From the NCBI GenBank assembly GCA_951406725.2, contig OX597835.1:7068001-7132000 (forward strand): a stretch of DNA of 64,000 nucleotides. The letters are read 5' to 3'. Each line of letters begins with the position of its first letter. The stretch's first letter is position 1. This DNA comes from Octopus vulgaris (Eukaryota). This document shows positions 58,899 through 59,402 of this stretch, one piece after another. Below the pieces are notes generated by a model, which saw only the letters and a program-made list of their open reading frames with translations, was not told where the DNA came from and searched no databases. The position numbers were made by a program, and so were the translations under genes.

Positions 58899-59402
58899 CG
58901 ATGGTGAAAATCAACAGCGATAAAGCACTCATGTTCCCGTCTATAGATTCGTTATTGTTCACATCTTCTTGAACTTCTACCTGCCAATTTTGCCCTCCTG
59001 ATGAAGGAAGCCGGTATTATAGTAATATATATATGCATCCATCTACTGATGGATATCTATGTATTTTTACACATTCCATCGCCTGATTATGAACATTACA
59101 ACTATACCGGGACTCAAGAAACAGATGTCGAGTTAAAAAAGCTATGTGTGAATGAATATGTGTATAAATATGTGTGTGTTCGTGTGTATACATATATATG
59201 TAATGTTCATAATCAGGAGATGGACTGTGTAAAAATTCATAGATATCCATCAGTAGATGGATGCATATATATATATTACTGTAATACCGGCTTCCTTCAT
59301 CAGGAGGGCAAAATTGGCAGGTAGAAGTTCAAAAAGATGTGAACAATAACGAATCTATAGACTGTAACATGAGTGCTTTATCGCAGTTGATTTTCGTCAT
59401 CG
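58899..59402. repeat. Foldback element with ~202-bp arms carrying a hammerhead-like motif
   Basis: Arms 58899-59100 and 59199-59402; ctc-CTGATGA(58998)...GAAA(59118)-cagat-GTC-gag. Confidence 0.88.

Follow-up and report, generated by a model that had tools for sequence, protein, structure and literature searches.

The hammerhead motif in this stretch of Octopus DNA appears, from sequence comparison, to be one copy of a dispersed family, and the interest lies in the long stem II of that family rather than in the foldback in which the copy is caught. With 113-120 nt between the conserved boxes, the predicted stem II is what is new here; the claim is built on two full sequences and on contig-level evidence. 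The first sequence lies in an inverted repeat at 58899-59402 of the window (the whole 64,000-nt stretch that was analysed) and the second, copy 2, lies near its start. The foldback is genuine and predates the split of the two labelled species in which it was found, and it is most likely an ordinary local rearrangement. The features on which the argument draws are the following.

58899-59100 (+): left arm of the inverted repeat, 202 nt
59199-59402 (-): right arm of the inverted repeat, 204 nt
58899-58967 (+): outer part of the arms, seen solely at the foldback locus and likely former flank caught in the duplication
58870-58899 (-): E4, a 30-nt fragment of the 3′ end of the element itself, unnoticed in the sequence-only reading
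58995-59004 (+): 5′ strand of stem I (CTC, 58995-58997) and hammerhead box CTGATGA (58998-59004), at the peak of family depth
59005-59117 (+): putative stem II domain, 113 nt; its ends pair mutually and the core-adjacent helix is lost in the foldback copy
59118-59132 (+): GAAAC box, stem III and 3′ strand of stem I, with predicted cleavage after C59129
59141-59202 (+): TG/TA tract of the spacer, probably inserted by copying from 56978-57040
56978-57040 (+): putative origin of the spacer tract, lying 2.1 kb from the foldback
3169-3375 (+): copy 2, ~73% identical over the insert, with a 120-nt stem II
50989-51291 (-): nearest downstream exon (residues 151-251) of a Gyc76C-like receptor guanylyl cyclase gene, 100% identical to P0003

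The foldback and its hammerhead boxes

The two arms are identical at 192 of 204 alignment columns and differ by 10 substitutions and one 2-nt indel. The folding energy of 58890-59410 is -342.6 kcal/mol (z=-38), a stability reached by 0 of 100 shuffles, and the minus strand likewise gives a long duplex (-330 kcal/mol). The joint at which the sequence switches strand was found in contigs of both DNA runs (Logan; X1 and X2), at 59098/59200 in X1 and at 59100/59198 in X2. Because these contigs come from DNA under two species labels, the foldback is not an assembly artefact. The 202-bp inverted repeat described in the sequence-only reading is thus borne out by arm positions, arm identity and the joint, and so is its view of the right arm as an inverted copy of the 5′ half only, since the GAAAC half is absent from that arm.

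The outer ~70 bp of the arms are covered only by contigs of the foldback locus itself. The outer-arm depth of 95.2 in X1 equals the sum of records 3 and 4 (36.4+58.8), some of the contig records behind such sums having been removed by a filter, and X2 has one contig there. A longer inverted homology over 58900-58990 was not significant, with 350/494 and 74/486 random segments scoring as high.

The boxes, along with stems I and III, are present where they had been reported. GAAAC-AGAT-GTC occupies 59118-59129 and GAG follows at 59130-59132, which places the boxes 113 nt apart; the long insert noticed earlier is therefore real, and long spacing is a trait of the family. Helix I has at least 3 bp beside the core (58995-58997/59130-59132), the CUGANGA box is followed by one extra base (58998-59005), and the GAAA-N..N-U-H arrangement is present with a 2-bp stem III and a 4-nt loop, one mismatch short of a palindrome. 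In a constrained fold, stem I consists of 3 bp plus four distal U-A pairs; in the free ensemble the pair probability of helix I is <0.01. A loop 2 of 3-10 nt, as in PLE-type (Penelope-like element) hammerheads, is not present in either full sequence, the boxes being separated by 113 and 120 nt.

A loose scan of the window found three hammerhead cores where shuffled windows gave 0.78 on average, and a bare core is unremarkable at that background rate. Stricter cores, which have either a helix of at least 7 bp near the boxes or the GAAAC-4nt-GTH form, occurred in 0 of 40 shuffles. An Rfam scan of the window returned nothing at the gathering score and no hammerhead family at E<=10; its 23 sub-threshold matches were mostly miRNA models on the long hairpin or on TA tracts. 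The ATG within CTGATGA opens a frame of 107 codons, to 59324, which has no Pfam match and was taken as chance.

Folding of the foldback copy

The helix ccggtat/ataccgg (59011-59017/59104-59110) had been proposed as stem II. It is predicted to form, with a probability of 0.90-1.0, and to that extent the proposal stands. It lies 6 nt (5′ side) and 7 nt (3′ side) away from the core, and the hammerhead alignments available in PMC10085705 permit 1-2 nt between helix II and core. The helix is also specific to this copy. Its 3′ strand is absent in both readable relatives (copy 2 and X1 record 8), so that it is not supported as the stem II of the family, and the ataccgg strand is, among the sequences compared, private to the foldback copy. 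A core-adjacent helix II (at most 1-2 nt away, G10.1-C11.1) was not found in the foldback copy, and the end-to-end pairing of its 113-nt insert was reached by 7 of 200 shuffles. As a separate observation, the private ataccgg (59104-59115) replaces a different family wording and is the perfect complement of 59011-59017, with one contig compared; the replacement resembles the outcome of hairpin-templated correction.

With the right arm left out, 58985-59145 hardly exceeds shuffled sequence in stability (12 of 200 shuffles do as well). Constraining this arm-free segment to helices I and III around an open core costs ~8 kcal/mol and gives the ribozyme fold a probability of 1.4e-6 by equilibrium folding, a method that leaves out tertiary contacts, dimers and protein help. 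All three matter for PLE hammerheads (PMC4209133, PMC11167929, as far as the available parts of these papers go). When the right arm is added, the probability falls to 1e-88. The sequence-only reading had asked for this comparison and had held the ribozyme and hairpin folds to be mutually exclusive, which is so in silico, the probability dropping from ~1e-6 to 1e-88. The fold switch that this might suggest is not a meaningful one: the ribozyme fold is ~8 kcal/mol uphill even without the right arm, and the full motif is antisense to the host gene. In these models the foldback copy leaves little ribozyme fold for the hairpin to exclude, and its ribozyme is predicted to be inactive.

A dispersed family with a long stem II

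Copy 2 aligned to the foldback copy with a score of 116, compared with a maximum of 82 in 100 shuffles. Sixteen pairs at P>=0.8 close its insert, with G3185-C3302 at the base (P 0.98) and one unpaired A on each side of this pair. Helix II thus reaches the core in copy 2, and 0 of 200 shuffles attained the same end-to-end pairing of the insert. The GAAAC box of copy 2 is intact (H=A) and the CUGAnGA box is not. Homology between the copies extends 60 nt beyond the cut site.

Further relatives were read from contigs aligned at 80% likeness to the foldback region, for which depth is not a copy number. Over 58996-59009 the summed depth reaches 1710 in X1 and 1158 in X2, compared with 67-95 (X1) and 23 (X2) on the flank and outer arm; single variant sites are represented by up to 14 contigs (X1) and up to 12 (X2). 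There are no variant rows at 58996-59012 versus 11 at 59013-59045, where rows count only recurrent variants above a 5% cut and the alignment is biased towards the best-preserved stretch.

Over the GAAAC half the depth is 107-119 in X1, compared with 644 just upstream, and 36-58 in X2. Most relatives are unaligned there and may diverge or stop. X1 record 8 does span the GAAAC half, with three substitutions and seven inserted bases at 59104-59115 and without a listed change in the box, while two X2 contigs align to both halves with unaligned sequence in between. Together with copy 2, these three contigs bring to four the other copies in which both halves occur in order. The base before GAAA is A in all three readable copies, where the consensus has C. 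RNAalifold, run on an alignment of the two full inserts that has an 8-nt gap at its 3′ end, returned a weak consensus of -2.8 kcal/mol in which the end-to-end stem is missing. Of two runs guessed to be RNA, X10 has shallow contigs over parts of the insert, which show neither strand nor level, and X19 has none.

A two-box pattern search of metagenome contigs gave no match, the gap range of the first pattern lying below the family's 113-nt spacing, and a two-box search of viral contigs gave none either. The sole match among genome contigs, L001 (Jeotgalibacillus), was set aside as chance, since it covers the end of a gene together with a hairpin and matches at 55 of its 121 inter-box columns.

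Intact family copies may be active hammerheads with a 120-nt structured stem II domain, a class that would be invisible to published descriptors. We put this forward tentatively, as a serious candidate that is still short of probable.

Relation to Penelope-like elements

The family is probably a PLE. This origin is one that we infer, as no Penelope ORF was found within the window. No RT or GIY-YIG domain was detected by Pfam in 177 selected frames (0 matches in the 83 near both copies, and neither domain in the other 94), a set from which low-complexity and short frames were left out. By analogy, the design of the family may work like that of a PLE pLTR hammerhead. Tandem units with a complete type I hammerhead were not found, the profile search of the window returning the two arms and copy 2 only.

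The sequence-only reading had gone further and taken the foldback for a PLE-type insertion with an inverted pLTR. The PLE-type part is supported by the boxes and flanks, which fit the published consensus for minimal PLE hammerheads; the geometry speaks against an inverted pLTR. In the available text of Craig et al. 2021 (PMC8557442), inverted PLE copies are 5′-truncated and sit at the 5′ end, so that the arms diverge and have the 3′ terminus in common; the hammerheads listed in File S2 of that paper are in sense orientation except in the inverted copy. Here the 202-bp arms converge, share the 5′-most part and lack a 3′ terminus, and their outer 70 bp are found at this locus only. Neither an inverted 5′-truncated copy with diverging arms nor a tandem pLTR is present, and the inverted-pLTR interpretation is not supported. 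The 30-nt piece E4 alone is head-to-head, which a template switch explains equally well.

Origin of the foldback

We lean towards a local replication template switch in one decayed repeat copy, likely a PLE 3′ end with its boxes 113-120 nt apart. This history is read from the order of the pieces and from their colinearity with copy 2. The ancestor would have been a single minus-strand copy, in the sense of the host intron, running from flank U through E1, E2, E3 and E4, where E1 is CUGAUGA with most of stem II, E2 is the GAAAC box with the cut site and E4 is the 3′ end at 58870. Synthesis would have left its template after E1 and copied ~57 nt from 2.1 kb away. It would then have jumped to the opposite strand at 59143 and copied back through E2, E1 and ~70 nt of flank, before rejoining at E4 with the loss of ~15-20 nt (E3). 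The right arm would likely mark the original position of the element's 5′ part.

Several observations are consistent with this order of events. Read in reverse, E4 is identical to 3346-3375 of copy 2, 31-60 nt past the cut site, at 25 of 30 positions, and this is the best non-self match among 1278 window segments (score 35; next 28). E1, E2 and E4 are colinear on copy 2, at 3169-3276, 3299-3325 and 3346-3375, and E1 of the right arm lies on the same strand as E4. Read along the minus strand, the order is U, E1, tract, the reverse of (U′ E1 E2), and E4. A template switch of the 3-1-2-4 type yields an inverted repeat and an inverted spacer (PMC5453318, in the part available), and the foldback has both, along with colinear flanks when copy 2 serves as stand-in reference. 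The switch also removes the coincidence that both arms end exactly at the start of E4.

The bases of the arms point to a close kinship between them. Both carry A59069 and G59085, whereas relatives have G at 59069 (757/867 of the depth, 12 contigs, X1) and A at 59085 (863/926, 14 contigs, X1; 672/721, 11 contigs, X2). Sharing these two bases against their relatives makes the arms each other's closest kin. The residual depth at 59085 does not exceed the arms' own in X1 and is close to the arms' own in X2; at 59069 in X2 the residual is 102, versus ~38 explained by the arms.

The spacer tract is identical to 56978-57040 at 56 of 64 columns, with GCT common at the junction and a score of 84, while no unrelated place in the window scores above 54. 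The tract is of low complexity and has very many genome-wide look-alikes, and the match to its source may be chance. A pre-rearrangement allele was not seen in the two DNA runs, both species labels carrying the foldback. The four-point events described by Loytynoja and Goldman 2017 are short and single in the available part of their paper (PMC5453318), whereas the foldback requires ~245 nt of back-copying and an extra templated insert, which brings it closer to multi-switch FoSTeS/MMBIR.

PLE machinery might instead have made the foldback at insertion, through an inverted pLTR, a head-to-head 30-nt tail followed by fold-back, or two-nick priming, but we consider this unlikely. The variants of this account would have a plus-strand copy with an inverted 30-nt tail at 58899, or priming from nicks that flank the TG/TA tract. 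Inverted 5′-truncated copies and 30-40-nt tails are described as hallmarks of PLEs (PMC8557442), and an anole PLE protein is described as cutting and extending both strands at AT-rich DNA (PMC11167929). TA dinucleotides do adjoin both inner arm ends, and the 30-nt piece does lie head-to-head with the left arm. However, the converging 202-bp arms are without a 3′ terminus, the outer 70 bp and G59085 are essentially confined to the foldback locus, and an extra assumption is needed to explain why the right arm ends exactly at the E4 junction. The template switch thus remains our preferred account of the foldback.

Alternative readings of the insert and the boxes

The insert itself could be a spliceosomal intron (GT 59014 to AG 59117-59118, 105 nt), in which case the ribozyme of the parent element would be gated by splicing. 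We find this doubtful. Its removal would bring C59012-G59013 before A59119 and give a compact hammerhead with a 2-bp stem II. All three readable copies have an AG before AAAC, at a place where C is the consensus. With the family base, position 59085 falls in a CTAAT word 33 nt upstream of that AG, a putative branch point that fits the branch-point consensus. In addition, two-bp stems II are common among natural hammerheads (PMC3088659), and introns are retained in PLEs, the one in D. virilis ending at helix I (PMC4209133), so far as the available parts of these papers extend.

Against the intron, the donor GTATTA and the acceptor of the foldback copy are weak beside the sites of the host gene, which has GTAAG at its three visible donors and long pyrimidine tracts. 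The GT is missing from copy 2, whose pyrimidine tract is accounted for by its pairing with GGAAGC. The joined form folds poorly too (P 6e-6), there is no GT..AG joint among the four joints listed, and the published descriptor permits an extra base before GAAA (PMC4209133, available part). Two other splicing schemes were rejected: joining at the second GT (59022) leaves no usable core (P 1e-9), and a 63-nt intron ending at the CACAG of the right arm was dropped because G59074 is private to that arm. A wider proposal, that a PLE hammerhead is gated by a ~105-nt intron in stem II and that the foldback was retained for having cleared a self-cleaving motif from the host-sense strand, carries as little conviction as the intron.

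It is less probable still that the boxes are no ribozyme at the family level and either co-occur by chance or persist as a long-dead relic in a conserved non-coding repeat. The scan without an Rfam hammerhead, the loose cores of shuffled windows, a 3′ box documented in just four other copies and the weak consensus fold would all suit such a reading. What speaks for a ribozyme is that the stricter forms are missing from the 40 shuffles, that stem II of copy 2 closes exactly at both box positions, and that helix I and the flanks fit the PLE consensus.

It is hardly credible that the structure is a DNA transposon of the foldback or MITE-like kind, its terminal inverted repeats being 200 bp long. 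AGAAA does lie one base outside either arm end, but this putative duplication is offset by a non-complementary base. A transposase would also require many copies of the outermost 70 bp, and these are covered by the foldback locus only.

The host gene and the strand of the motif

The host gene was identified through P0003, the Octopus bimaculoides receptor guanylate cyclase Gyc76C-like (NCBI name). Five minus-strand exons cover residues 151-464, residues 1-150 are without a match in the window, and two frames match Pfam ANF_receptor. With the exons for residues 151-464 mapped and residues 1-150 unmatched, the gene model places the foldback inside a minus-strand intron of the Gyc76C-like gene. 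P0003 stops just beyond a GTAAG donor in the region 3631-3822 (-), and its homolog P0004 runs on into kinase and cyclase domains; the database model of P0003 looks truncated.

Because the host gene is on the minus strand, the complete set of boxes is antisense to it. The host-sense strand has the CTGATGA of the right arm (from 59303) and no GAAA..UH downstream. The host pre-mRNA would therefore contain half a hammerhead only, and is predicted to form a ~200-bp duplex. Long duplexes are ADAR substrates, and the pre-mRNA duplex is likely to be one. Repeats are the main targets of A-to-I editing in animals according to PMC9989829, in the part available. The proposed switch would have taken the GAAAC half off the host-sense strand, and any selection for that outcome is speculation. 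The locus would then be an example of how a template switch can flip a half-ribozyme off the host-sense strand and leave a 200-bp duplex behind.

Neighbouring features in the window

A second, unrelated compact type I hammerhead-like motif lies at 59496-59550 (-), with CTGAGGA at 59543 and GAAAC at 59518. It has a 4-bp stem III, a 2-bp stem II and a 6-bp stem I behind a core G-A mismatch, and is in host-gene sense, ~60 nt from a (TGG)n tract. The pattern matches once in the window and in 0 of 300 shuffled windows, with no second copy in the window.

Upstream of copy 2, at 3120-3181 on the minus strand, GAAAC-GTGG-GTC is followed after ~30 nt by a (TA)n run. Either chance or a head-to-head junction with the 3′ half of a further hammerhead could account for this; alternatively, these bases could be the 5′ strand of helix I of copy 2. 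Two small head-to-tail duplications (~43 and ~16 nt) lie shortly upstream of copy 2, at 2860-2970. Recurrent GAAACAGC(T/C)GTAAG words at 31494 (+), 41122 (+) and 50036 (-) resemble a hammerhead 3′ half with a palindromic stem III, and have no exact CUGANGA within 170 nt upstream.

The sequence at 58680-58869, which adjoins the 3′ end of the element, is a dispersed repeat with ~10 window copies at ~70% identity, presumably SINE-like. A tandem duplication with a period of 1110-1113 bp and 96-100% identity extends over ~60028-62000 and beyond, and is either recent or an assembly artefact. Pfam matches at 34290-34541 (+), 34549-34776 (-) and 41283-41597 (+) comprise DDE_3 and HTH_micro below threshold and DUF7859 above it. 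The DDE_3 and HTH_micro matches are a possible DNA-transposon relic.

Comparison with known hammerheads and related systems

The octopus family resembles the minimal type I hammerheads found in pLTRs of metazoan PLEs (Cervera and de la Pena 2014, PMC4209133) in its U-rich 5′ flank, 3-bp helix I, CUGANGA box with one extra base, G starting helix II, GAAA box, NUH cleavage triplet, short near-palindromic helix III, A/U-rich 3′ flank and location close to a 3′ end. Rows of File S2 of Craig et al. 2021 (PMC8557442), where Hydra-clade motifs are given, also show helix II flanked by an unpaired base on either side. The family differs in the spacing of its boxes, 113-120 nt compared with a descriptor loop of 3-10 nt and alignment rows of 3-9 nt in the available part of PMC4209133, and with at most 35 nt in File S2 of PMC8557442. 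It also has A before GAAA instead of C, and no linked ORF was found in the window. By eye it is unlike the Hydra-1_Obim motif and the 3′ ends of Naiad_Obim and Naiad_Ovul, as these appear in the available material of PMC8557442.

The foldback likewise shares some traits with the inverted pLTRs of PLEs (PMC8557442, same material), as an inverted partial copy near a longer one, beside microsatellite DNA. Its polarity is the opposite: the arms converge, have the 5′-most part in common and take in single-copy flank. Animal non-LTR retrozymes (PMC7229834; bioRxiv 10.64898/2026.07.22.740005) are similar to the family in combining a type I hammerhead with a non-coding, dispersed and likely PLE-derived repeat; unlike the retrozymes in the available parts of these sources, the window copies are single and truncated, with no tandem units.

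A family with 113-120 nt between its boxes would escape published searches, in which loop 2 is limited to 10 nt (PMC4209133) and box spacing to 17 nt, with half-cores noted at 35-50 nt (PMC8557442). In PMC13725137, as far as available, a ‘long helix II’ is one of 6-8 bp. Some elements scored as hammerhead-free in such searches may hold one with a large inserted domain. We found no published stem II as long as that of the octopus family in a mainly non-subscription literature, and variants with a long stem II may exist among those of Lunse et al. 2017. The stem II domain is also a candidate binding site for the element's protein; in the anole element, the protein assists cleavage (PMC11167929, available part).

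The CLEC2 hammerheads of mammals, reportedly described by Martick and colleagues in 2008, are said to have catalytic halves that are likewise far apart in primary sequence. They are reportedly type III ribozymes located in 3′ UTRs and carry their insert in loop I, whereas the octopus hammerhead is type I, lies in a repeat and has its insert in stem II.
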